Positions 1,635 through 48,582 of a DNA stretch of 49,133 nt are shown in pieces. Where the stretch lies: assembly GCA_026985385.1 (NCBI GenBank), contig JALSQM010000036.1:1-49133 (forward strand), written 5' to 3'. The translations under genes were made by a program, and so were the position numbers. The DNA is from Acidilobaceae archaeon. GTDB taxonomy: Archaea > Thermoproteota > Thermoprotei_A > Sulfolobales > Acidilobaceae. Under the pieces are notes generated by a model. The model made no database searches. It was not told the DNA's origin and saw nothing but the letters and a program-made list of their open reading frames with translations. Position 1 is the stretch's first letter; each line of letters starts with the position of its first letter.

Positions 1635-2090
1635 CTACCTTGACTGAGCCCATCCCCAGTAGACGTAGCCCTTCTCCGTGTATACCTTGAAGTAGACCTG
1701 GGTTCCGCTGGGTATGCTCTTGGATACCTTTAAGGCCACCCAGAACTCGCTGCCGACACTAGCGACGACCCTGCCATTTACTATTTCAGCGCTGCCTGTG
1801 GTGGTGTTAACTATGCGTATATCTACGATGCTTGCATCGTCTACCTTGAACCATAGCGTGGCGGTCGGGTCTATGTGTGTCTTGATGTGCAGGTATAGGG
1901 TAGACGATTTAGAGTCGAAGTAGGAGTCCCCGAAAATTTCGATGGCCTGCCCATGGATCGTAGAGTGTATATTCCAGAAGCCGACTAGCCACGATACAAA
2001 GGCTATAGAGACGGCGATGGTGGCAGCTATTAGTATTATGAGTGCCACCACGGGCTCGATAGAACGACGCTTGGAGTTCCCCCTCTTCAA
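1635..2090 (-). CDS. Archaeal type IV pilin-like protein (class III signal peptide), distal pilin of the operon
   Basis: Track ORF 1635..2168 is trimmed here to the in-frame TTG at 2090. This gives (M)KRGNSKRRS|IEPVVALIILIAATIAVSIAFVSWLVGFW, a short basic leader followed by a long hydrophobic helix, as in archaeal pilin/archaellin N-terminal domains. The rest looks beta-rich. A TATA-like box lies about 24 nt upstream of the TTG. Confidence 0.7.
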   Translation of the reverse strand: MKRGNSKRRSIEPVVALIILIAATIAVSIAFVSWLVGFWNIHSTIHGQAIEIFGDSYFDSKSSTLYLHIKTHIDPTATLWFKVDDASIVDIRIVNTTTGSAEIVNGRVVASVGSEFWVALKVSKSIPSGTQVYFKVYTEKGYVYWGWAQSR

Positions 2091-2167: not shown

Positions 2168-3460
2168 CTAAGAGCTAAGGGTGGCGAGGAGCTTTACGTT
2201 CCCCAGCGTGAAGGATAGCGCTAATGCTAGCACGTAATAGGCTAGGGCTAGTATTAGTAGATGGTAGCGCCCCCTCCGCCCTAAGACCACGGGGGCGGCT
2301 ATGGCGCTCATGTAATGGAGAGGCAGGTAGTACCACGCAATAGGCTCTAGCAGCCCCAGTAGCAGGAAGGCATAAACATTAACGAGGGCCAGCAGGCGGC
2401 CCAAACTCTCTGGCTCATCTAGAGTCTTAGAGCCGAGTATTCTCCATAGGAGAGGCGCTGCGAGGACTAGTACCACTGCTACGTAGGGCGAGTATTCGCC
2501 TAGGTTCATGAAGACCAGCCACCCAGCCCTCACAGGCGTGCTAGCTACTACCTCGGAACTATTGGGTACTACAGTGAAGTTCACCTTGTAGAGCCTCCAC
2601 ACCTCTACTCCCGCGAATATCTTGAGCGATGAGATGGCTGCCATAGCCGCCCTCGGCCCGTGGAGCCTCTCATGGTAGCGGAGCGAGGCCACTAACCCAT
2701 CCGCTATAGACTCCAGCTCCCCCACGCTGTGGGCCCTCAACAGGCAGGCAGAGTACACAATGGGAGCCAGGGCTATCGTGAATACTATAGAGGCTATGAG
2801 GTACGACGCCACACCCCAAGAGACTCTAGGGTCACCCCCGACTCGCCTACCGCGTAGGTGGGCGGCGATTACTACAACAAGTAGCGAGAGCACGTAGAAG
2901 GCCGCTATGTACTTAGCGTAGAAGGCTAGAGCAAGCACCAGGCCCGCCGCCAGCGTGTATGCTCTAGAGCCGCGCCTACCTCCGCTTCTCTCCCTGGGAT
3001 GCCTGCTCAGCCTGGTGAGGAGGCTGATGAAGAGGGCCTCCGACGCAAGTATTAGTAGCGTGGAAACATTATCTAGGAGGGCCGCGCCCCACACGTTAGC
3101 CACGAGGGGATCCACGGAAAGGAGCGCTGCAGCAAGGATCCCCCCTCGGCGGTCAGAGAGCCTAGAAGCTACATAATACGATAGAGCTATAGAGGATACG
3201 TAACCCACCAACAAGAAGGCGCGGAGGGCAGACATCGAAATCCACGCCAGGAGGCCATAGACGTACTTCCCCAGCGGTGGATGCTCAGGGTTACACGTGA
3301 GGGGGCAAGCACCCTCAACGTATTTCAAGCCACACGCTATATAAATCCTCTCATCCAAGTACGTGTTATGGAGCAGGTAATGAATAATCATATAGGAGAA
3401 GGGAGAGACGGACAACACCGATATAAGGGGCAAAAAGCTGAGGATGGGAAGACGTTTCAT
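2168..3460 (-). CDS. Polytopic GT-C glycosyltransferase, PMT/GT39 (protein O-mannosyltransferase)/ArnT-like
   Basis: The 430-aa protein has many predicted TM helices. Its first loop region carries YLDERIY (a DE motif) and CNPEHPPLGKYVYGL (HPPLxK), both hallmarks of polyprenyl-phosphate-sugar-dependent PMT-family enzymes. Confidence 0.65.
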   Translation of the reverse strand: MKRLPILSFLPLISVLSVSPFSYMIIHYLLHNTYLDERIYIACGLKYVEGACPLTCNPEHPPLGKYVYGLLAWISMSALRAFLLVGYVSSIALSYYVASRLSDRRGGILAAALLSVDPLVANVWGAALLDNVSTLLILASEALFISLLTRLSRHPRERSGGRRGSRAYTLAAGLVLALAFYAKYIAAFYVLSLLVVVIAAHLRGRRVGGDPRVSWGVASYLIASIVFTIALAPIVYSACLLRAHSVGELESIADGLVASLRYHERLHGPRAAMAAISSLKIFAGVEVWRLYKVNFTVVPNSSEVVASTPVRAGWLVFMNLGEYSPYVAVVLVLAAPLLWRILGSKTLDEPESLGRLLALVNVYAFLLLGLLEPIAWYYLPLHYMSAIAAPVVLGRRGRYHLLILALAYYVLALALSFTLGNVKLLATLSS

Positions 3461-3485: not shown

Positions 3486-3881
3486 CTAGCTACTCGCTAC
3501 AACGTAACCCTGGTAGACATTGCCAGAAGCGGTGTAGACTTTGATTAGGTATTGAGTGCCAGCAGTCGCGTTTGTGGTTAAGCCAACAAATATTGTCGTA
3601 TCTGCGCCTTGCGGCAGTGTTACGGATGTTACATTACCAACACCTAAGCCGACCACCTCTACTTTGGTTATTACCGCGGCTTTAGAACCGGTATTCTTTA
3701 TATGGAGCGTGAGAACGCTACCTGTCAGGCTGGTGTCGGGCATTACTGTTAGCTGCTCTGTTGTGCCGAAGGTGCCCCAGAGGCCCATGAGCCAGCCTGC
3801 TACTGCGATACTTATCGCTATGGCCACTGCCACTATGATTACCGTGGCTATCACAGGGCTTATCGAGCGCCTGCTCCTCAT
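3486..3881 (-). CDS. Archaeal type IV pilin (class III signal peptide), likely the major pilin
   Basis: The N-terminus MRSRRS|ISPVIATVIIVAVAIAISIAVAGWLMGLWG matches the archaeal prepilin consensus (basic leader, then xSPVIATV...). By hand count the mature ~95 aa are about 26% Ser/Thr, with two N-x-T sequons. GGTG sits about 7 nt upstream of the ATG. Confidence 0.8.
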   Translation of the reverse strand: MRSRRSISPVIATVIIVAVAIAISIAVAGWLMGLWGTFGTTEQLTVMPDTSLTGSVLTLHIKNTGSKAAVITKVEVVGLGVGNVTSVTLPQGADTTIFVGLTTNATAGTQYLIKVYTASGNVYQGYVVASS

Positions 3882-3926: not shown

Positions 3927-3934
3927 TTTTATAG
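3927..3934 (-). promoter_or_regulatory. TATA-like box (CTATAAAA on the minus strand) upstream of the pilin gene
   Basis: It lies in the 164-nt gap between the platform-gene stop and the pilin ATG, about 49 nt upstream of the ATG. This would give a short leader carrying a GGTG Shine-Dalgarno-like element. Confidence 0.25.
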
Positions 3935-28237: not shown

Positions 28238-30220
28238 TCAGCGGAGGAGGCTCCTAAGAACCTCCCTGGCGGCCTCCCTAGGCGTGTAGGCGACCCTAAC
28301 TAGAGCGCCTACCTCCTCCATCCGAGTTCGGGTCGCGCTGTCGTGGCCTGGCGGTACTATGGCGAGCAGTTTATATCCCCTCCTAACCAGCTGGGAAGCC
28401 ACATCGACGGGGTCACCCGGTTCGATGGTCTGCTTGAGATCGGAGACTAGAACTATCCTCTTGGTCCCCCTACCCGCGGCAGCCCGTAGTGCTGAGGCTA
28501 TGTCTGTGTAGCCGGCAAACCTCACCGAGAGCAGGGTTCTCGCTAGCTCCGTGGCAGTGAAGGGGCCCTCGAGGATCCTCGGCTCGGAGGAGAATAGTGT
28601 GAGCCTCTCAATGTTGGAGGAGAAGAGGACCGCTATAGTGAGGGCCCACATGCTGTGATCCAGCATGCTACCGCTAACGTCGAGAGCCAGGCTTATCCTC
28701 CTACTCTTCAGCCTCCTCCTAAACACCAGGGGATCCGTGGCTAGCCTCCCAAGTCTGTATATGGTCCTCCTAACCTCGAGCCTGCCCGGCGGGGATAGGG
28801 AGGTCTCGTTGCGGGGTAGTAGCCTAAGGCCCTCGCGGGCGGCGAACCTATACAAAAGGGAGGCCGTGGCCCTCACTATCAGCTCTCGCTCCTCTCCGCC
28901 AACCCTGGCGTAGAGGCCTCGTAGCACCTGCAACGACCTAGTCGGGCCTAGCCTCCTCAGCGTTGAAGCTAGGTGCTCCGCATTACCTCCCCCAGTCTCC
29001 AACGCCTCGACAATAGCTAGCGCTGTTGAGGCGAGGCTCTCTATACTCGAGGAGGAGAGGGGGCCCAGCGAGTAGGCTGCATCAATCCTCCTGGCGTCCT
29101 CAATGGCTCTGAGTGCCAGGTCTTTAGCCATATCGGCTCTACCAGGCTCGCCCGTCTCGGCGAACTTCAGCGCCTCATAGAGGCCTCTCGCCGCCTTCGT
29201 TGCTGCATCGAGTAGAGCCCCCTCCACCCCCTTGAAGGGGTGTCTTCGAACCGCCCAGAGAAGGGAGGGATCCAATCCTTCAATCAGCCTCCTAGCCTCT
29301 CCGGCATCCATGATCCTCAGTGCCTTAGCTACAAGCTCTCCGCCCCTCTCCCAGCCTAGACCAGAGGCTATTTCGGCGATCTCGCGGCCACCCACTGGGA
29401 GATCCCTTACTAGAGCGGGGTCGCTGGCTATCAAGATCCTCTCGTGGGCTATACTCAGGCTTCCAGCTCTCCTAAGTATGGGGATAACCTCCTCACCATC
29501 GATGCGCTCCCCCCTAAGGATCCTCTTACCCAGCTCCTCGGCTACAGCCTTGAGGAGGCGGGAGTCCCCCTTCCTCATGGCGGCTTTACCCAGGCTCAGC
29601 AGCCTCCTCGATTCGAGGCTCCCGAGGTCGCCTTTGACGTCGAGCTTCGCCTCGGCTCTGAGCATTGAGTCGTCCTCGCTCCAAGTTGGGGCCTCCTCTA
29701 GGGCCTCGCCTATGCTCTCATAACCCATAGAGGCTATCCTCTTGGAGATTAGGGATATCTCGGCTTCACCCACAACCCTCTCCCGGCCACGTGGCCCCCT
29801 AATGACCCCCGCCTTCCTGAGTAACAGGTACGCCGCAACTCTCTCCCTCCTCCTTGGGCCGCTCAGCACCCTCTTCTTCACAACCCTATCCCCGGGCTTC
29901 AAACCGAGCTTCCTCAGGTTCTCGTCTATCTCATCCCTGATCCTCCTAGCGTTGGCGTCCAGCTTGGCGGAGACCATCAGGCCCTTGACCTCGTTTAGGA
30001 GGAGCTGTAGTTGCTGCGGCTTCAGCGCCAAGGTAGATGCAAGCACGAGTGATACCTCGTCCTCGTCAATATAGCTCCTATTCACTAGGACAGAGTAGGA
30101 GTGAAGGATCCTAGCCGCCGTCACCAGCTGGCCGGTCCCAACCTTGAGACCCCTCCTCCTAAGCGCCTCACCCAGGGATGGCAGTAGGTCTATGAGAGCC
30201 TCAACGTTGTAGCGGGGCAA
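28238..30220 (-). CDS. vWA-domain protein, CoxE-like, with a long helical N-terminal region
   Basis: The 660-aa protein has a C-terminal vWA domain with MIDAS residues (ISLALDVSGSM ... GYTDIASAL ... VLVSDL). This is preceded by the CoxE-type basic linker (RLEVRRTIYRLGR..RRRLKSRR). The first ~480 aa are Leu/Arg/Ala-rich helical sequence with no motif I recognise. Its start overlaps the MoxR gene end by 20 nt. Confidence 0.8.
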   Translation of the reverse strand: MPRYNVEALIDLLPSLGEALRRRGLKVGTGQLVTAARILHSYSVLVNRSYIDEDEVSLVLASTLALKPQQLQLLLNEVKGLMVSAKLDANARRIRDEIDENLRKLGLKPGDRVVKKRVLSGPRRRERVAAYLLLRKAGVIRGPRGRERVVGEAEISLISKRIASMGYESIGEALEEAPTWSEDDSMLRAEAKLDVKGDLGSLESRRLLSLGKAAMRKGDSRLLKAVAEELGKRILRGERIDGEEVIPILRRAGSLSIAHERILIASDPALVRDLPVGGREIAEIASGLGWERGGELVAKALRIMDAGEARRLIEGLDPSLLWAVRRHPFKGVEGALLDAATKAARGLYEALKFAETGEPGRADMAKDLALRAIEDARRIDAAYSLGPLSSSSIESLASTALAIVEALETGGGNAEHLASTLRRLGPTRSLQVLRGLYARVGGEERELIVRATASLLYRFAAREGLRLLPRNETSLSPPGRLEVRRTIYRLGRLATDPLVFRRRLKSRRISLALDVSGSMLDHSMWALTIAVLFSSNIERLTLFSSEPRILEGPFTATELARTLLSVRFAGYTDIASALRAAAGRGTKRIVLVSDLKQTIEPGDPVDVASQLVRRGYKLLAIVPPGHDSATRTRMEEVGALVRVAYTPREAAREVLRSLLR

Positions 30221-31154
30221 TGTGGAACACCTCTCCTACCACACTACTCACTATCTCCTCGTCCTCCACCCTCTTCGCTAAAACGCTTAGGGCGGCATCG
30301 TAGACATCTTGGAGGGCCACGCTGCTTCGGCCCCGGAGCCTGGCCAGCGCTTGAGCCATGCGCGCCCACGCTACAGCCTCGGCGGTGCCAGGCTTGTGTG
30401 CGAGGCCAGACTTTCTGAGCTTTGATATGGCCTCTAGTATCAGGTTCATAGCGTTGCTGTCGAGCCTGGGGTTCTCCTCGATCCTCAGCCTAATTATGCG
30501 GGCCTCCACCTCCCTGGGGGGATATGTGAAGGGTATCCTAACCACCCTCCTGAGGAAGGCATCGCTCAGATCGTTCTGCGCTATATCCTCGGGGTTACTC
30601 GTGAAGACCACTTGGAAGCCGGGGCCCCGCGCGTGGAAGACCCTCTTTAGCTCCGGCACTACTATACGCCGCTTATCCACGACGTCTAGAAGCATGTTCT
30701 GGAAGTCCTCGTTACTCCTACGTATCTCATCGACAAGAACGCCAGCGTCTAGTATTAGAGCTGCTAGAAGTGGGCGCGGTATGAATGACTCCTCGTTAAA
30801 CCCCTTCTGCATGGCTATAAGGGGGTGGAAGTCCCCTATAACCTTGTACTCGTCGTAGTTCTCGCTGCAGGGGAGGAGGAATGGCTTCCTACCAGCCCAA
30901 AGCTCTAGGAGGGCCTCGCCTATCTCCGTCTTACCCGTGCCAGGAGGCCCCTCGAAGAGGACAGGCCTGCCATTCATAAAGGCCGCGTAGGTCAGCGCAA
31001 CTATTCTCTCGTCTACTATTAGCTTGAATTCTCTCTCGAGAACCTCAACGGCTGCTCTAGGATCCCTTACCGGCCTCCTGGGCTTGGCAACGTCCGCGTA
31101 TATCTCGTGGACTTTAGCCTCGATGGGATCCCTCTCGCCCGGATTCTCCCTCAT
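30201..31154 (-). CDS. MoxR-family AAA+ ATPase (CoxD/NorQ/CbbQ-like)
   Basis: Walker A GPPGTGKT, Walker B GVLVDEIRR, sensor-1 FTSNP, and the AFLRR arginine region. At 317 aa it is a single AAA+ module. Confidence 0.85.
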   Translation of the reverse strand: MRENPGERDPIEAKVHEIYADVAKPRRPVRDPRAAVEVLEREFKLIVDERIVALTYAAFMNGRPVLFEGPPGTGKTEIGEALLELWAGRKPFLLPCSENYDEYKVIGDFHPLIAMQKGFNEESFIPRPLLAALILDAGVLVDEIRRSNEDFQNMLLDVVDKRRIVVPELKRVFHARGPGFQVVFTSNPEDIAQNDLSDAFLRRVVRIPFTYPPREVEARIIRLRIEENPRLDSNAMNLILEAISKLRKSGLAHKPGTAEAVAWARMAQALARLRGRSSVALQDVYDAALSVLAKRVEDEEIVSSVVGEVFHIAPLQR

Positions 31155-31818
31155 ACTTACCAGCTCCCATGCCTGTGAAGCGGGTGTTCAGGGAGCTTAA
31201 GCGCTCTCTTTCCACCCACTCCCCGGGCTCGTAGATCTCCCCCTCGTCGGGGGGAGAGAGGGCCTTGTCTAGTTCCTCACATACCTCCCTGAAGGGACAC
31301 CTAGAGCACCTCCCCTTACTCCTGCGGGGGTACCCTACTATGCCCCAATACTTAATTTTAACGACGTCGTCAACAGCCCTTAAGACGGCCGAGGAGATGC
31401 TCGAGTCCAGGATGTAGCGGTAACTCCTCTCGCGATACCGTATCTCCAGTATAACCTCGTTCACGTCACTATTCCGCGCCAGGATAACGCCATACGAACC
31501 GGCTTGTAGGACGTCGCTCGGCCAGGCCTCGCGGCGCGGCCCTCTACCGCTCTTCCTCTCAATGACAATGGCCTTATCACCCCTTAGAAGTACGGCGTCA
31601 GCCCTACCCCTCAAGACGACGTTGCCCAGCCGCGTCTCCATCCGATTCTCGGTAGAGTAACCCCTCAACCGGAGGGGGACAGCTAGGATGGCGTGGTAGA
31701 TCCTGCCTAGAAGTAGGCGGATGACCTCCCATGGCCCCCTTCTGCGGGGGAGGTTGTACTCGAAGAATAGAAGCCTAGGGCAGTAGCCCAGCTTGTGTAT
31801 CTCACTGGGCCATATCAC
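31114..31818 (-). CDS. Cas4-like (DUF83) PD-(D/E)xK nuclease with four cluster cysteines, not associated with CRISPR in this window
   Basis: The motifs appear in order: an N-terminal Cys ([12 protein letters not shown]), GRIYH, the RADAV aspartate, IERK (ExK), QAGSY (QxxxY), and C-terminal [10 protein letters not shown]. The start is trimmed to GTG 31818, which overlaps the ileS TGA (GTGA). The track ORF extends to 31881. Confidence 0.75.
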
Positions 31819-34800
31819 GTAGTGGGGCTCTTCCCCGCCTTCACTATTCCTATCCTGAGTCGTCTCCCGTCCACCTCCCATTCCCTACTATAAGCGTTGG
31901 AGGGGGGCTCCCCGCGGTGTATCCTAATAGCCCTAGTCTCGCTTTTAATGTAGTCCTCCTTTTCACCTATCGCGCGCCCCATCTCATCGTCGCAGTCAAC
32001 CCACACCTCTATGTAATCGGTTACGCTTAGACCCGCCTCCTTTCTCATGAACTGTATCCTCCTCACCACCTCCCTGGCCAGCCCCTCTAGGATCTCCTCC
32101 TCGGTCACCCTAGTATCCACGGCTACGATGAAGTCGTCGCCCTCCTCAACGCTAAGCCACTCGGGGTACTCGGCTACAACCTTCACGTGCCTAGGCTCTA
32201 GGACTACCCTGACGCCTTTGTATTCCGCCTCGAAGCGGCCCTTCTCCATTAAAGCCCTTGCAACCTCCTCGCCACGCTCCCTCAGTAGCTCATACACCTT
32301 GGGGGAGTCCCTCTTGTATAGGGGGCCTATCTCTCTATAGTTCGGCTCGACGCGGTACACCCTAACCCTCTCCAAGGCCTCGGGCCGCAGGACCTCGATA
32401 CTCTTAGCGTTAACCTCCTCCAGTATTAGCTCCCCTAGCTCTCTGGCCGCATCCCTGACTAGGGGGCTGCTGGTGGCCACTATGATTCTAGAGACTGGCC
32501 TCCTGATCTTAAGTCCAGCCTTCATCCTAGCGGCTCTCGCGGCCTCTACTATTTCTCTAGCCTTACCCATTAACTCCTCCAGTCTTTCATCGATCAGGGT
32601 AATATCGGCTTCCGGGATATCTAGGAGGTGCACGGACTCGGGGCCCTCCTCGGCTTCCCGGAAGAGCTTCTGGTACACGTACTCTGTTAGGAACGGTATG
32701 AAGGGGGCTGCAGCCGCCAGCCACCTCCTAATGGCGTAGTATAGCGTGGCGTAAGCCGCCATCTTGTCTGGCGTCTCCTCGTCGGTCCACACCCTCCTCC
32801 TCACGAGCCTCAGGTACCACCTACTTACATCGTTAATTATGAACTCCCTCAGGAGCCTGGCAGCCTCGTGTATGAGCAGGGATGCCATGGCCTTATGGTA
32901 TTTCCGGAGGAAGTTGTTGACGCGAGAGAGGAGCCATTTATCCTCCACCCTTAGGTGCTTGGCGTACCTCTCTAGCGTGTGACGGGTGGGGTCGTAGGCG
33001 TCTAGGCCCATATACATGCTCATGAACGTGAAGACGTTCCAGATCACTGTGAAGTCCCTCCACATCCTCTCCATCTCGCGCCATGAAAAGCGCAGATCCT
33101 CCCAGACCGTGTTGCTGGTCGTCCAGAGCCTTACCACGTCGCGGGGGATCCTCTTTATCAGGTCGTCGAAGTCTATATAGTTGCCGAGGCTCTTGTGCAT
33201 CTCCCTGCCCTGCTCGTCTAAGGCGAAGCCGTGGACGAGAACCCTCCTATAGGGGGCCTCGCCGAACCCTATGACGCCGCTCCTGAGGAGGCTGAAGAAC
33301 CAGCCTCTTATCTGGTCGTGCCCCTCTACAATGAAGTCGACGGGCTTCAGCCTCTCCCAGAGATCCCTCCTCTTAGGGTAGCCGAGGCTCGCATAGAACG
33401 CTATGCCGCTGTCAAACCATACATCGGCTACATCCGGTACCCTCCTCATTACCCCTCCACACTTTGGACACCTCAACGTCACCTCGTCTACCCAGGGCCT
33501 ATGTAGCTCCCTAGGCCTCCTCCCCCCAAGCTTCTCGAGCTCATCCAAGCTACCAATAACGACCCTGTAGCCGCACCTCTCGCATACCCATATGGGCAGT
33601 GGGATCCCCCAGAACCTCTGCCTACTTATAACCCAGTCTCTGACATTCCTTAGGAGATGCATGAACCTCTCCTTAGCCCACCTAGGTACCCACTCTATCG
33701 TCTCGGCATTCCTGATAAGCTCGTCCCTAATCTTCGAAACCCTAATGACCCACTGCTTGGTAGCCCTGAGGAGGAGGGGGGTCTTGCAGCGCCAGCATAC
33801 CGGGTATCTGTGGACAACCCTTCCCTCGTGGAATAGTGCCCCACGCTCCCGGAGATCCCTTATTATCGCCTCGTTTGCCTCTGTCCTGAAGTAGAGTCCC
33901 GCATAACGGCCGGCCTCAGGCAGCATTCGGCCGTCGTCTCCCACTAGCGAAATCACGGGGACGCCAAGCCTCTTGCCGATCTCGAAATCAACGTCTCCAT
34001 GACCAGGGGCTGAGTGGACCAGGCCAGTGCCCTCGTGGGGGGTAACCGCCTCCGGGGCCATGACGACCCTATGGTACCTAGCTAGGATCCTCTGGGCATC
34101 CACTAGATCCTCTAGGGGGTGGAGGTACTCTAGGCCTTCTAGCTCCCTGCCAGGCATCTCCTCTAATATCTCGTACTCCTTGACTCCTGCCTCCCTCATA
34201 ACCTCCTCTACCCTAGCCTTAGCGAGGATTAGAACCTCGCCACCGACCCTCACCCTGACATAAGTAAGGTCTGGGTGCGCCATGACGAAAGCGTTAGCTG
34301 GGAGTGTCCAGGGTGTTGTCGTCCAGATGAGGAGGCTCTCCCCTTTCCTACCCTTCACGGGGAACTTCACGTATATGGAGGGATCCTCTAAGTCCCTGTA
34401 CTCTGAGACCTCGTAGTCGGCTAGTGTCGTCTGACACCTAGGACACCAGTGCACGACGTATACATCCTCGTCTAGAAGACCCTTCTCCCACGCTTTCTTG
34501 AAGAGCCACCAACCCGACTCTATGTATTCGTCCTTGAAGGTTACATAGGGGTTATCCCAATCCATAAACACCCCCAGCTCCTTGAACCTCTTCGTCTGCT
34601 CCCTCAGGTTCCTCTCCGCGAAGCGCTTGCACTCCTCGACAAACCGGTCTATACCGACCCTATCAGTTATCTCCCCCTTCTCCTTGATGCCGAGGCTCTT
34701 CTCTATCATAACCTCTATGGGGAGCCCGTGTGTATCGAAGCCTGGGCGATCCCATACGTTGAAGCCCATCATCCTGTAGTAGCGGAGGATAACGTCTTTT

Positions 34801-45232: not shown

Positions 45233-45265
45233 TTTATTAATATTTTAATTAAATTATTATTTTAT
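45233..45265. promoter_or_regulatory. 33-nt pure A/T block (TTTATTAATATTTTAATTAAATTATTATTTTAT) in a divergent intergenic region
   Basis: It is the only long 100% A/T run I saw in this window. It contains the TTAATTAA palindrome and several overlapping TATA-like heptamers, and it ends at the ATG at 45264. It fits a leaderless promoter for the + gene, and possibly a promoter for the minus gene starting at 45173. Confidence 0.45.
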
Positions 45266-47324
45266 GAAAGCTAGAGAGCTTATGCCCCCGGCTCAAGGAG
45301 CCCTCCGCTCACCCCTCCCTCTGAGGCGTTGTCACCCTGAATACCCACTGGGGCTGGGAATGCGGCGCATACACAGGGAGGGCAGGAGGGGGTTAGGTGA
45401 GTTAATCGCAGCATTAGTTGTAGCCGTAGCGTTGACGTCAGCAGCTATCGCTATCTCAGCGCTCATTCACAGGGAAGCGGGGCTAGCCTCTACAGTAGCC
45501 CTCCGAGCCGCAGAGAGGGTTAGGGACTCAAATTTCGCCCCACTACTCAGCGTAGGCTTAGATAATGGGAGTACGCTCTACCTTGTCGTCTACCCGCAAT
45601 ACCCGATCAACGTCTCAGAGATAGTCTATGTCAAGAATGGGGTGGTTGAGGAGATAAAGGTGGGGAAAGTAATCGAGACTGTGTCCAAGCTCGTAGTTGA
45701 TCCGAAATACGACTGTAGTCCGGCGAGGATATACTTGGTCACGGGGAGCGGCGCCGTAATCCCATATATGCCTGCGCGCGACCCCAGGCTCCTATCCTTG
45801 GCGTACTCGGGGAATTCGAGCATCCTCGAGAAACCCTACATAGACTGCAGCCTCCTCCGAGCCGAAGCAAGCACGGGCAGGTCCTCCGCTCAAGCCAGCA
45901 CCGCCTCCCCCATAGGGGTGGCCGTTGATGGCGACTCCTTCTACGAATTAGAGAGTAGCGACCCCCCCAAGATAGATGTAGTTGATGGTGATCCCTACAC
46001 TATTTCTGTAATCAGAGTCGAGGCTACGGGTGCCCTTTCCTCTGGAGGGGCGAATTTAACGTATAACATTACCGTTCTGGGATCCAACGAAGAAGCCCTG
46101 GGAGTTAACGTCCAAGCAATTAGGTACAGCCACCCTTTAGACCTAAAGTATGCCGTCTCACTTAAGGGCGATCAAGGTCAGAGGGTGGACGTCTACGTGT
46201 TCGTGTATTGTGGGGGCTCAGCCTGTCTCACAGGGCTACTCTTCAGGAGCGGCTCGCCCACCATCTACACGGGCAAGGTATACTCCAACCTAACTATCCA
46301 GGCGAATCTCGATCAGACTGAGTGTCCTCTAGGCGAGAACAGCTACGTGGCTCCAAGCGTTATCGGAGGGCTTTCCAGCTACAAAACCGTGGTAACGGCT
46401 ACCTGTACCTCTACGCAGTGGTACACGGATTACACGCTGGAGGGGGAGATTATCGATGGGAGCTACGCTACAGTAGGCCCGCTGGTGCTGGCCTACTCCA
46501 CGTCGATCAGTGAAGGACTGAAGATGTGGGCTGATGTATGGCTCCAGTCAACTATGCCTATAGGGGGGTCGTCTTCGATCTACCAGCTACCCTGCAGGGG
46601 TCCACTCAAGTATAGGCTAGTGCCTTACACCGTTCAAGGCTCGGATCCCCTGGCACAGGCCATTACCGGCCTCTACAACTCTGTCATAGAGATGGATAGC
46701 CCTAAGATCATAGTTGATTTCGGGTCGTTCAACATAACCAGGAACATCACCGTCTCAGGGGGCATCATACCATTCAGCGGTGGAGAGGCCTACCTCGTAG
46801 AGACCCCGCCCTACACGGGGCTTCCGCTGGTGACAGCGTTGAACATCAGCTACAAGTCGAAGGTTGTCTCCAGTAGCGAGTACCATGAGACGATAAGGTA
46901 TGAGTGGAACATAACAGCTCTATACTCCCCTCAACCCCTCCTATGGCCCGCGCCATTCCTGGTTCAGGTGGACTGCCTTGAGACTGGTAGAAAGCTTGTG
47001 ATAGCCGCGCCCCCAGCAAGCACGCTTACACTCGCCGAGGGGGGATTAGAGTTCCAAGGGATAGCATCCACAATAGGCGAGGTCAACGTCACACTCCGAA
47101 TGCCGTCCAACTCCACGGAGTGGCGCTTCTACATCATACCCCTCACGGGGTCTATCGATGAGGGCTTCACCGCCTCCTTTACAATGGAGCCCAGGAGCGC
47201 TATTGGCGAGGGCGCCAGCGTTACCTTGAAGCTACCCGTGGGAACATATCTAGTCATAGCCGCGCCCAGAGATCCAAGTGTTTACCCGTCGAGTTACGCT
47301 GCCATCATAGTCTTCGCATACTAG
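45264..47324 (+). CDS. Large secreted protein with a pilin-like (class III-type) N-terminal hydrophobic helix
   Basis: The 686-aa ORF contains ...MRRIHREGRRGLG|ELIAALVVAVALTSAAIAISALI (the internal ATG at 45360 is an alternative start). A pilin-like beta domain follows (STLYLVVYPQYPINVSEIVYVKNG...), then ~500 aa of beta-rich sequence with many N-x-S/T sequons. There is no C-terminal anchor. Confidence 0.6.
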   Translation: MKARELMPPAQGALRSPLPLRRCHPEYPLGLGMRRIHREGRRGLGELIAALVVAVALTSAAIAISALIHREAGLASTVALRAAERVRDSNFAPLLSVGLDNGSTLYLVVYPQYPINVSEIVYVKNGVVEEIKVGKVIETVSKLVVDPKYDCSPARIYLVTGSGAVIPYMPARDPRLLSLAYSGNSSILEKPYIDCSLLRAEASTGRSSAQASTASPIGVAVDGDSFYELESSDPPKIDVVDGDPYTISVIRVEATGALSSGGANLTYNITVLGSNEEALGVNVQAIRYSHPLDLKYAVSLKGDQGQRVDVYVFVYCGGSACLTGLLFRSGSPTIYTGKVYSNLTIQANLDQTECPLGENSYVAPSVIGGLSSYKTVVTATCTSTQWYTDYTLEGEIIDGSYATVGPLVLAYSTSISEGLKMWADVWLQSTMPIGGSSSIYQLPCRGPLKYRLVPYTVQGSDPLAQAITGLYNSVIEMDSPKIIVDFGSFNITRNITVSGGIIPFSGGEAYLVETPPYTGLPLVTALNISYKSKVVSSSEYHETIRYEWNITALYSPQPLLWPAPFLVQVDCLETGRKLVIAAPPASTLTLAEGGLEFQGIASTIGEVNVTLRMPSNSTEWRFYIIPLTGSIDEGFTASFTMEPRSAIGEGASVTLKLPVGTYLVIAAPRDPSVYPSSYAAIIVFAY

Positions 47325-47346: not shown

Positions 47347-48582
47347 CTATTTCCTCTTCAGCCACCTCCAAGGCTTGAAGAGGGCTAGGGTTAAGGCTAG
47401 GAGGCCTGCTGAGACCGCCAGAGCTATCTCCTCGATAAGTATTAGGTGACCCCCTACACCCCCGCTCGCCGCGCCGCCTCCGGGCGTGGTTGTTGGAACG
47501 GCCACGCTAGCGATAGCTATAGCCTCGATGAAGGGGGCTCCCCCGCTTGAGCCTCCCACATATACTAGCCCCCCGCCTCTGGAGGCCGCTAGCACGAGGA
47601 GGGACTGGTTCGTCTCGTTGCTGTAGGCGAACGCCTCTAGCTCCCCTGTGCTGTTGAGGAGTAGCACAGCGAGCCTGTATGGTTTTGGGGCCAGCACACC
47701 CGCCAGGGTGAAGGCCTCCCGGGACGCGCTGAGGGCTGAGGGTATGAATGCCCCTGTACTCTTACTCCAAGCGATCGAGCCCCTCTTCACCAGCTCTACC
47801 CTACCACTGGCGTTCCCCACACCCGCCACTAGGGCCTCGCCGGAGCCGAGGTCTAGGAGTGCGAGAGGGGTGAAGGTCAGGTTGGCGAGGTAGGTCGTGT
47901 CTCCAGTGTATTGCAGGCACACCAGAATAGGGGGGTAGCCAGCGGCGCATATGCTCTGGTCTGGGCCAATAGCTACGAGGTTTAGGTAGTCACTACCCTT
48001 GCCTCCCCAATACTTGGACCAGAGAAGGCCTCCACGCGATGCTAGCCCTATGAAGTACTGATAGTCAAAGCCGAGGTGATATCTGGCTCCTGCCACTACA
48101 ATATCCCCGGCCGGAGTCGGGTAGGCTGCGAGCACCCTGTAGAGCGGCTTGGTCAGGTTGAACGTGAACACCGGCGAGAAGCCCCCCTCGCCTCCCCGGT
48201 ATAAGGTGAGGTAGGTCTTGTTACCCTCAGAGTTTTCGGTAACCACCAGCATGGACTTGCCGAGTAATAGCATGGAGAGGGGGGTCTCCCTGACGGCTAT
48301 CCTGGAGGCCCAAAGTACCCTGCCCGTACTAGCGTTGAACGCGTAGACTAGGGGGCCCTCGGAGTCTATTAGCGCGTAGAGAATCCCTGAGGAGTATTCA
48401 AGATCCACTACATAGCCCTTCAGGCTAGGCTGCCAAACCCATTGCTTGAAGGCCACAAGCCTAGAGCTTTGAGGAGCCATGGTTGAGGTGGAGGCCCCCG
48501 TAGAGCCCAGAGCCAGGGAGGCGGCTATGACGGCCGCTAAGAGCGCGGAGGCTAAGACCAGACCCGTCAGCTTCCCGCGCAC
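47347..48582 (-). CDS. Surface-anchored PQQ/BamB-like beta-propeller protein
   Basis: It has a signal peptide (MRGKLTGLVLASALLAAVIAASLALG) and recurrent G-x-x-L/A-W-A/S motifs (GRVLWASR, GGLLWSKY, GSIAWSKS). A Thr/Gly-rich linker, a TM helix and a basic tail (LALFKPWRWLKRK) follow. Confidence 0.6.
   Translation of the reverse strand: MRGKLTGLVLASALLAAVIAASLALGSTGASTSTMAPQSSRLVAFKQWVWQPSLKGYVVDLEYSSGILYALIDSEGPLVYAFNASTGRVLWASRIAVRETPLSMLLLGKSMLVVTENSEGNKTYLTLYRGGEGGFSPVFTFNLTKPLYRVLAAYPTPAGDIVVAGARYHLGFDYQYFIGLASRGGLLWSKYWGGKGSDYLNLVAIGPDQSICAAGYPPILVCLQYTGDTTYLANLTFTPLALLDLGSGEALVAGVGNASGRVELVKRGSIAWSKSTGAFIPSALSASREAFTLAGVLAPKPYRLAVLLLNSTGELEAFAYSNETNQSLLVLAASRGGGLVYVGGSSGGAPFIEAIAIASVAVPTTTPGGGAASGGVGGHLILIEEIALAVSAGLLALTLALFKPWRWLKRK

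Follow-up and report, generated by a model that had tools for sequence, protein, structure and literature searches.

A PMT-like GT-C glycosyltransferase encoded beside a type IV pilin is a candidate pilin-dedicated protein O-glycosyltransferase in Thermoprotei

Background

The PMT/GT39 enzymes, represented by yeast Pmt1, Pmt2 and Pmt4 and by actinobacterial Pmt, are a close point of comparison for a membrane glycosyltransferase of the GT-C class whose gene lies beside a type IV pilin gene on the metagenomic contig JALSQM010000036.1 of an Acidilobaceae archaeon (ENA ERZ27262668, also SRR8439172). This contig was analysed over its whole length of 49,133 nt, referred to here as the window, and the glycosyltransferase, hereafter the GT-C protein, is the subject of this work. 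The active-site residues of PMTs have been placed by mutagenesis and cryo-electron microscopy, and the Asp-Glu (DE) pair is their catalytic motif (PMC8698208, PMC12705809). Eukaryotic PMTs carry a MIR domain in the loop between transmembrane (TM) helices 7 and 8 (PMC12705809), and an Arg in loop 9 is required for activity in S. coelicolor Pmt (R510; PMC8698208) and contacts the phosphate of dolichol phosphate (Dol-P) in Chaetomium thermophilum Pmt4 (CtPmt4 R666; PMC12705809). The GT-C protein resembles these enzymes in its predicted GT-C_A fold with 11 TM helices (N-in/C-out), a DE motif in loop 1, an HPPLxK motif, an LLD motif at TM4, a Lys in extracellular loop 3, a His and a Trp in the TM7-TM8 loop and an aromatic-rich TM9-TM10 loop. 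It differs from them in being archaeal, in its length of 430 amino acids (aa) as against ~500-820 aa, and in being encoded beside one substrate candidate, whereas PMT genes are stand-alone housekeeping genes.

Glycosylation enzymes encoded next to the pilin that they modify are known from bacteria. Among them, TfpO/PilO belong to a different fold family and are O-antigen ligase-like. TfpW, from the group IV pilin loci of Pseudomonas aeruginosa, is a GT-C-type membrane enzyme that uses a polyprenol-phosphate sugar, and its gene directly follows the major pilin gene (pilA), whose product it modifies (bioRxiv 10.1101/2020.04.19.049825). Pilin glycosylation in Pseudomonas relies on an accessory, allele-specific gene and guards against pilus-specific phages (bioRxiv 10.1101/150227). 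The GT-C gene shares the position of the TfpW/TfpO class, lying immediately beside a major pilin gene, and does so across lineages. TfpW itself differs from the GT-C protein in that it is bacterial and has been described as an Emb-like D-arabinofuranosyl transferase whose C-terminal periplasmic domain is large, and the two are likened here by description, not by sequence or fold.

Among archaeal enzymes, AglB is of the same fold class and modifies pilins and archaellins, but the GT-C protein has no C-terminal soluble domain of the AglB/STT3 kind, its TM-scores against these enzymes are low (TMq 0.47-0.53, TMt ~0.28), and its partner pilins are often free of sequons. Structural likeness to ArnT/GT83 amounts to what all GT-C_A enzymes share (TMq 0.55). 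AglS (HVO_1526) from Haloferax volcanii is archaeal, uses Dol-P-mannose at the outer face and glycosylates a surface-protein glycan (PMC3871713); its target is an N-linked glycan of the S-layer protein and the enzyme has no link to a pilin, and it too is set beside the GT-C protein by description. Comparative genomics has also noted archaeal 'PMT family' arCOGs (arCOG00563 and arCOG00566) of uncharacterised membrane proteins (PMC5898192), but these are euryarchaeal and lie near flippase-like, AglD-like and Wzy-like genes, not pilins. Pili of Sulfolobus/Saccharolobus, the thread of S. acidocaldarius and haloarchaeal S-layers have repeatedly been seen to be O-glycosylated, with the pathway called elusive and the enzyme unassigned (PMC8241124; PMC11607397), and the statement in the initial annotation of this DNA that no archaeal protein O-glycosyltransferase had been assigned agrees with these 2021 and 2024 papers, within the literature searched. 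In its main text, a census of type IV pilus loci in archaea published in 2016 names neither a glycosyltransferase nor a PMT or ArnT-like gene, and a 2026 preprint on archaeal type IV filament (TFF) systems does not mention PMT, its sole glycosyltransferase being one in the conserved neighbourhood of the Sulfolobales ups pilus. Within the literature searched, a conserved cassette of a pilin gene and a PMT-like gene is undescribed.

Here we propose that the GT-C protein is a pilin-dedicated, Dol-P-sugar-dependent protein O-glycosyltransferase, a reading to which we assign a probability of roughly 0.57 and which is based on fold, family placement, motif conservation, synteny, the occurrence of sequon-free partner pilins, and an accessory distribution combined with fast evolution. 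As such, this PMT-like protein is at present the strongest candidate, on genomic grounds, for the enzyme glycosylating Ser/Thr residues of archaeal surface filaments. The pair of pilin and PMT-like genes is concrete and testable, with a cultured host in Stetteria hydrogenophila JCM 10135, and the small size of the enzyme suits structural work. If the proposal is true, the role of PMTs in protein O-glycosylation would extend to Archaea, a substrate-dedicated PMT would have been shown, and the pilin-adjacent glycosylation genes of Pseudomonas would have an archaeal counterpart, with possible consequences for virus-host recognition via pili.

Results and discussion

Family placement and fold of the GT-C protein

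Sequence profiles placed the GT-C protein with the PMT enzymes. The protein passes the Pfam thresholds of both PMT_2 (PF13231; 36.1 bits, cut-off 26.1) and PMT (PF02366; 29.4 bits, cut-off 22.7), and in a family of 21 members PMT was matched by 16, PMT_2 by 12 and other Pfam families by none; the top NCBIfam match, archaeo_STT3, scored 17 bits against a cut-off of 450. A profile of the family searched against 177,635 distinct PDB sequences at E ≤ 10 matched only yeast Pmt1 (6e-10), yeast Pmt2 (1.5e-6), CtPmt4 (3e-4) and ScPmt4 (0.025), with no ArnT, PglB, AglB or STT3 among the matches, and the DE, HPPLAK, LLD and Lys (Pmt1 K234) elements were in register between the family and Pmt1. By hhalign, the family aligned with bacterial Pmt, of PMT + PMT_4TMC architecture, at 99.7% (E 3e-26) over 319 of 411 columns, the last four helices included, and with an actinobacterial 'ArnT family' group at 98.3% over the N-terminal 151 columns only. 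The latter group, also named 'GT39' (Actinomycetes, ~540 aa, tight), has the exact NPEHPPLGK and WYYLP strings in common with the archaeal family and has an additional C-terminal soluble domain.

With the single protein as query, a word-indexed homologue search matched only the protein itself, and phmmer returned nothing from the PDB sequences. The family profile in the word-indexed search recovered one true family member, and the database names of relatives included 'ArnT family' and 'phospholipid carrier-dependent glycosyltransferase'. HMMER, run exhaustively over 1.84 billion representatives, gave only 108 matches, ~25 of them full-length relatives of ~400 aa, indicating that the GT-C protein is very divergent. 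No MIR domain was matched by Pfam, and a ~33-residue beta module fills the corresponding loop. Given the lack of a conserved loop-9 Arg, the absence of MIR and a size about half that of eukaryotic PMTs, we place the GT-C protein, as judged from sequence, within the PMT branch as a minimal, divergent enzyme rather than a canonical GT39 one. Bacterial Pmts are not known to have MIR either, so that its lack would not bar membership of the wider PMT family.

An AlphaFold2 model of the GT-C protein, built on the 21-sequence family alignment, had a mean predicted local distance difference test (pLDDT) score of 91.4 and a predicted TM-score (pTM) of 0.91, and is read as a GT-C_A fold with 11 TM helices in an N-in/C-out orientation. 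Arg-rich loops (residues 152-166, 203-212 and 393-398) lie on one side of the model, taken as the cytoplasm, and the invariant polar residues all lie on the opposite side. Significant Foldseek matches in the PDB were all GT-C_A enzymes, with the best E-value for AglB from A. fulgidus (7.8e-7, TMq 0.49), the best TM-score for Chaetomium thermophilum Pmt4 (0.66/0.58) and the lowest root-mean-square deviation (rmsd) for ArnT (5.2 Å, TMq 0.55). Structure sets the fold class, not the subfamily, as Foldseek does not discriminate within GT-C_A and sequence does. The initial annotation had named the protein PMT/GT39-like; of the fold comparison that it proposed, the GT-C_A class stood and the subfamily was not settled by Foldseek, and placement with PMT rather than with AglB/STT3 or ArnT was borne out by Pfam, the PDB profile search and hhalign.

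The 21 aligned sequences, at 19-42% identity with the query, have 15 invariant columns (M1, D36, Y40, N57, E59, H60, P62, K65, G69, L129, K183, H267, W288, W376 and Y377), and several of these coincide with residues that are assigned in PMTs. The counterparts of D36 and E37 are D113 and E114 in S. coelicolor Pmt (PMC8698208) and, for the Asp, D84 in CtPmt4, where the Glu is uncited (PMC12705809). H60, P62 and K65 correspond to H159, P161 and K164 of S. coelicolor Pmt (PMC8698208), and the equivalent of the His in CtPmt4, H105, is a ligand of the Dol-P phosphate (PMC12705809). L128, L129 and D130 correspond to S. coelicolor Pmt L231, L232 and D233 (PMC8698208), the CtPmt4 residues being uncited, while K183 corresponds to K302 of S. 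coelicolor Pmt (PMC8698208) and to the phosphate ligand K244 of CtPmt4 (PMC12705809).

Conserved linkage to pilin genes

Between positions 1635 and 7590 of the window, five minus-strand genes follow in the order pilus assembly ATPase, platform protein, pilin, GT-C and second pilin, and the pairing of pilin and GT-C was retained in related genomes. One genome per species was scanned for the family motif across 185,579 species, and the open reading frames (ORFs) of the best 80 of 126 confirmed loci, designated by L numbers, were scored with hidden Markov models (HMMs) of the family and of the pilin. The GT-C scores were bimodally distributed, and the close family was delimited at 245 bits or more. 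At every locus at or above this line, and at two with a truncated GT-C, the gene immediately upstream belongs to the pilin family and has the same orientation, with the exception of L037, whose contig begins 70 nt before the GT-C gene; L011 is a further exception, by arrangement, having a clear pilin convergent to and just downstream of GT-C and a weak pilin-like match upstream at the contig edge. The evaluable close family comprises ~28 loci from Desulfurococcales-type archaea, and most close-family loci have the full order ATPase-platform-pilin-GT-C, in Desulfurococcales-type metagenome-assembled genomes (Ignisphaera, Thermosphaera, Zestosphaera and others). The gap between pilin and GT-C genes ranges across loci from -77 to +207 nt. 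Distant versions of GT-C in Nitrososphaeria (L031, L054) and Pyrobaculum (L042, L047) are likewise preceded by one or two pilin-like genes; a pilin directly upstream was not seen at bacterial matches nor at most Bathyarchaeia matches. Since it recurs in every evaluable close homologue, the adjacency is not due to chance, and the pilin linkage from which the initial annotation had argued is thus kept in all evaluable close members of the family and in distant ones.

The closest GT-C protein is that of the cultured Stetteria hydrogenophila JCM 10135 (WP_460123046.1; 43% identity by tblastn, 47% by phmmer), which NCBI names a 'glycosyltransferase family 39 protein', and the Stetteria locus (L083), whose pilin has 137 aa, repeats the layout of the window, including a divergent ~1,900-aa surface protein. 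In L164/L165, which is most closely related to the window, GT-C likewise follows the pilin and precedes the second pilin, and a homologue of the second pilin with 64% identity occupies the same position in L165. The genes 3' of GT-C vary among loci and are often further pilin-like genes or a convergent second ATPase-platform-pilin set. Homologues of the second pilin are convergent to GT-C in L033, L103, L106 and L132 (also L005 and L023); in the first four, they belong to a second, abutting ATPase-platform-pilin operon, which leaves GT-C at the junction of two pilus sets.

Some of the distant relatives have features of their own. In Pyrobaculum oguniense TE7 (CP003316.1; L042 7053..9016) and at a second Pyrobaculum locus (L047 4..1963), two pilin-like genes stand just ahead of the distant GT-C, which has 362 aa in L047 but reads in P. 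oguniense as ORFs of 159 and 179 aa and may there represent a frameshift or pseudogene; a 900-940-aa secreted protein is encoded after GT-C. In Bathyarchaeia (L039 4887..6110; L049 7851..9074), a 407-aa relative with an NFEHPP motif adjoins a 495-aa membrane protein, and a convergent cluster ~3 kb away encodes a type IV pilus-like ATPase and a split platform protein, with no pilin recognised next to the relative.

The partner pilins as acceptors

The modelled structure of the protein encoded directly upstream of GT-C indicates that it is a genuine type IV pilin. It passes the NCBIfam cut-off for the archaellin/pilin N-terminal domain, and its AlphaFold model (pLDDT 88.6) has as best Foldseek matches the solved crenarchaeal type IV pilins (E 5e-7 to 8e-6), namely those of P. 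calidifontis, S. acidocaldarius (Aap), S. islandicus, S. solfataricus and P. arsenaticum. The adhesive pilins of Sulfolobus/Saccharolobus are reported to be heavily O-glycosylated (PMC7347861), and it is the fold of these pilins that the window pilin matches by Foldseek. Ser and Thr make up 26.0-26.3% of its globular part, in line with the ~26% counted by hand in the initial annotation for the mature domain, and 22.6% of the whole mature chain; the median for long ORFs in the window is 10%. The upstream pilin has two N-X-S/T sequons and the second pilin, which along its entire length shares 24-38% identity with the pilin family, has one. A conserved WGTFGTTEQL stretch and variable loops rich in Thr are features of the pilin sequence.

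Of the 28 pilins whose genes immediately precede that of a family member, 12 are entirely free of N-X-S/T sequons, and the Ser+Thr content of the globular part is mostly 20-33%, making all but a few of them Ser/Thr-rich. That 12 of the 28 are sequon-free, yet nearly all are Ser/Thr-rich, favours O-linkage, and the sequon-free partners argue against both an AglS-like enzyme dependent on a pilin N-glycan and an oligosaccharyltransferase (OST) dependent on a sequon. Sequon counts did not differ between GT-linked and unlinked pilins. Thr content was somewhat higher in GT-linked pilins (16.0%) than in unlinked homologues (12.7%; Mann-Whitney p = 2e-4, without phylogenetic correction), a further point in favour of the pilin as acceptor.

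Accessory distribution and fast evolution

A scan of metagenomes from the pilin side, using the pilin profile, gave 55 evaluable loci, 17 of which (~31%) have GT-C adjacent to the pilin and 38 of which do not, indicating that GT-C is not needed to build this type of pilus. GT-C is thus accessory to this type of pilus and not universal in it. One such locus (L128 5995..7033) has a complete ATPase-platform operon and two tandem pilins, both rich in N-X-S/T sequons, with no GT-C between them.

The members of the operon have diverged at different rates. Identity between the window and Stetteria is 70% for the ATPase, 55% for the platform, 61% for the pilin, 43% for GT-C and 30% for the giant surface protein, and between the window and L164/L165 it is 80-85%, 72-77%, 75%, 36-45% and 43%, respectively. 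GT-C is therefore the fastest-evolving member of the operon after the giant surface protein and outpaces the pilus machinery. The pilus ATPase of L164 (3498..5957) is 819 aa long and contains an intein (Pfam Intein_splicing), which separates stretches sharing 80% and 85% identity with the 553-aa ATPase of the window. PMT_2-like paralogues that are not linked to pilins occur in the same lineages (L040, L065, L071, L078), in view of which the pilin-linked clade looks specialised.

Proposed mechanism and alternative explanations

In the mechanism that we propose, a Dol-P-hexose would be produced on the cytoplasmic face and then flipped outward, where the active site at the outer membrane surface (D36/E37, H60, K65, D130, K183, H267, W288 and W376/Y377) would bind the lipid-phosphate sugar. 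On the outer face, the inverting GT-C enzyme would then attach the sugar to hydroxyl groups of Ser/Thr residues in the pilin, and probably in the second pilin as well, while the N-terminal helix still anchors the pilin in the membrane and ahead of its polymerisation by the ATPase/platform machine. We infer the acceptor, the O-linkage, the sugar, the donor and the timing relative to assembly. The suggestion in the initial annotation of a pilus-specific O-glycosylation enzyme is nonetheless supported as a well-founded candidate by the PMT placement and the pilin linkage.

Other explanations were weighed against this one. The enzyme might be a general surface-protein O-glycosyltransferase, or might act on another substrate such as the 1901-aa neighbour or the S-layer, and stand in the pilus operon for co-expression only. 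Fungal and actinobacterial PMTs do modify many secreted proteins, and the giant surface protein is conserved as a divergently encoded neighbour in the window, in Stetteria and in L164; however, the adjacency is specific to the pilin, with the giant protein within 8 kb of GT-C in only ~6 loci, and that protein resembles an N-glycoprotein (47 sequons where ~13 are expected, 15% Ser+Thr). Moreover, the pilin-unlinked PMT_2-like paralogues could fill general roles, and a patchy, allele-like distribution suits a filament-specific accessory better than a housekeeping enzyme, and we consider a general role or another substrate unlikely. An AglS-like activity, in which a hexose from Dol-P would be added at the outer face to an existing Asn-linked pilin glycan and give the pilus its own N-glycan variant, has a precedent in the transfer of mannose by AglS from Dol-P-Man to an N-linked tetrasaccharide outside the cell (PMC3871713). 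It would require the same fold and donor type as a pilin O-glycosyltransferase, and the window pilins do have sequons, two in the first and one in the second. Against it stand the sequon-free 12 of 28 upstream pilins, with which the gene pair is nonetheless kept, sequon counts that do not differ between GT-linked and unlinked pilins, and sequence profiles that set the family with PMTs acting on protein acceptors (AglS itself being outside the comparison), so that this activity appears quite improbable.

A non-protein acceptor, such as a lipid or cell-envelope glycan in the manner of ArnT, or the OST-like en-bloc transfer of an oligosaccharide would be in keeping with the Foldseek results, in which AglB/STT3 had the best E-values and ArnT the lowest rmsd, with the breadth of the Pfam family PMT_2, which includes ArnT-like enzymes, with the names carried by database relatives, and with the missing loop-9 Arg. 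Yet ArnT, PglB, AglB and STT3 were all absent from the PDB profile matches, the NCBIfam STT3 score was far under its cut-off, and the C-terminal soluble domain and a WWDYG-type motif are both absent, the GT-C protein ending 11 residues past TM11; a lipid or glycan acceptor also gives no reason for the strict pilin adjacency, and we hold such a role to be very unlikely. That catalysis has been lost and the protein acts as a membrane scaffold or chaperone for pilin pre-assembly deserves hardly any credence, as its sole support is the operon position and the fast sequence evolution, whereas the 15 columns that are invariant over 21 sequences at such low identity include the DE Asp, the HPPLxK His and Lys, the LLD Leu and the Lys of extracellular loop 3. 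With such an invariant catalytic pattern, an active enzyme is to be expected.

Several observations weigh against a pilin-dedicated O-glycosyltransferase of the PMT type. The TM9-TM10 loop has no conserved or invariant basic residue in the family alignment and has GPIxWYY instead, and in hhalign the PMT loop-9 Arg falls opposite a gap or non-basic positions. PMT_4TMC (PF16192), which is part of bacterial Pmt, was not reported by Pfam at E ≤ 1, though the model has four helices after the TM7-TM8 loop, and by hhalign these align with bacterial Pmt proteins that contain this domain. The fall of the best Foldseek E-values to AglB/STT3 leaves an oligosaccharyl-type donor possible, and GT-C is absent from 38 of the 55 homologous pilin loci. 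Archaeal pilins and archaellins have ~20% Ser+Thr and the heavily O-glycosylated Sulfolobus pilins 37% (PMC7347861), which puts the 26% of the window pilin slightly above the typical value and far under that of Sulfolobus, and the argument from Ser/Thr composition is thus real but weak on its own. The Thr enrichment of GT-linked pilins comes from a test that includes only 10 unlinked pilins and takes no account of phylogenetic relatedness.

In the boldest reading, to which we give about even odds, the GT-C family would be the first identifiable archaeal protein O-glycosyltransferase family, a stripped-down PMT that travels with its own pilin as a two-gene cassette throughout Thermoprotei and also in Nitrososphaeria, is gained and lost between close pilus operons and evolves faster than the machinery. 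Such gain and loss and such fast evolution would be in keeping with diversifying selection on pilus glycosylation, which could be exerted, for instance, by the many archaeal viruses whose receptors are type IV pili.

Locus layout and neighbouring genes

The features of the locus are collected in Table 1. The 430-aa ORF with YLDERIY (residues 34-40, nt 3341..3361) and HPPLGK that had been described in the initial annotation was recovered, and the neighbouring minus-strand genes confirm its position between two pilin genes in company with the ATPase and platform genes. The ATPase and platform genes overlap by 4 nt, and the spacers further along measure 164 nt (platform to pilin), 25 nt (pilin to GT-C) and 77 nt (GT-C to second pilin). 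On inspection of the sequence, the 25-nt gap contains neither a promoter-like box nor a T-tract, from which we infer that the pilin and GT-C genes are co-transcribed. The box CTATAAAA is a putative pilin promoter, picked out by eye rather than with an archaeal promoter model.

Table 1 Features of the pilin and GT-C locus in the window
Feature	Coordinates	Strand	Evidence and remarks
Second pilin, paralogous, 151 aa from TTG 2090; possible second acceptor	1635..2090	-	Class III-like signal KRRSIEPVVALIIL
PMT-like GT-C glycosyltransferase, 430 aa, 11 predicted TM helices (N-in, C-out)	2168..3460	-	ORF, Pfam, AlphaFold, Foldseek, family profile
WYY motif, TM9-TM10 loop	2327..2335	-	W376 and Y377 invariant; set by hhalign opposite the PMT 'RxxFxFY' loop
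Beta-strand module, residues 286-318, TM7-TM8 loop	2507..2605	-	Model and alignment; contains invariant W288, with invariant H267 just upstream
K183, extracellular loop 3	2912..2914	-	Invariant; aligns with Pmt1 K234
LLD motif, L128-L129-D130, TM4 start	3071..3079	-	L129 invariant, L128 at least 90% conserved; aligns with Pmt1 'ILLD'
NPEHPPLGK, residues 57-65	3266..3292	-	N57, E59, H60, P62 and K65 invariant; aligns with HPPLAK of Pmt1/2/4
DE motif, D36-E37, first extracellular loop (TM1-TM2)	3350..3355	-	D36 invariant, E37 at least 90% conserved; aligns with Pmt1 D77-E78
Major-type type IV pilin, 131 aa, Aap-like fold; proposed acceptor	3486..3881	-	Class III signal MRSRRSISPVIATV
TATA-like box CTATAAAA, putative pilin promoter	3927..3934	-	~49 nt 5' of the pilin ATG, read from sequence
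Pilus platform protein, TadC/UpsF-like, 628 aa	4046..5932	-	Pfam T2SSF 2e-26; NCBIfam UpsF 128 bits, under cut-off
Pilus assembly ATPase, T2SSE/FlaI-like, 553 aa	5929..7590	-	Pfam T2SSE 1.5e-33; NCBIfam FlaI 362 bits, under cut-off
Divergently transcribed surface protein, 1901 aa	7681..13386	+	Eight CarboxypepD_reg repeats, C-terminal TM anchor

The start codons of two genes were reconsidered. A public gene call begins GT-C 15 codons later, giving a protein of 415 aa, and was dropped, as the first helix would then be just 14 residues long; the ATG at 3460 is preferred because it yields a full-length TM1 with a K-R N-terminus, as in homologues. For the second pilin, a start at 2168, the mechanical end of the ORF, was dropped in favour of the TTG at 2090 chosen by the gene caller, which yields a normal class III signal. 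The possibility that the GT-C protein is a prepilin peptidase was dropped, as Pfam shows no Peptidase_A24 match.

The 1901-aa protein encoded divergently from the pilus operon has a signal- or anchor-like N-terminus, a weak beta-propeller-like region, at least eight repeats of the CarboxypepD_reg/PEGA type and a C-terminal TM anchor. Its excess of N-X-S/T sequons makes it look like an N-glycoprotein, and by sequence it is a candidate S-layer protein or adhesin. Proteins of this kind are found in the same divergent position in Stetteria (L083) and L164, at only 30-43% identity. This conserved neighbour accompanies GT-C in a minority of loci only and is at most a possible part of the pilus system.

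Farther along the window, a pair of genes for a VWA (CoxE-like) protein and an AAA_5 MoxR-like ATPase (28238..31881, minus strand) adjoins a Cas4-like PD-(D/E)XK nuclease, and two large ORFs at 45264..47324 (plus strand) and 47347..48582 (minus strand) have zero Pfam matches.

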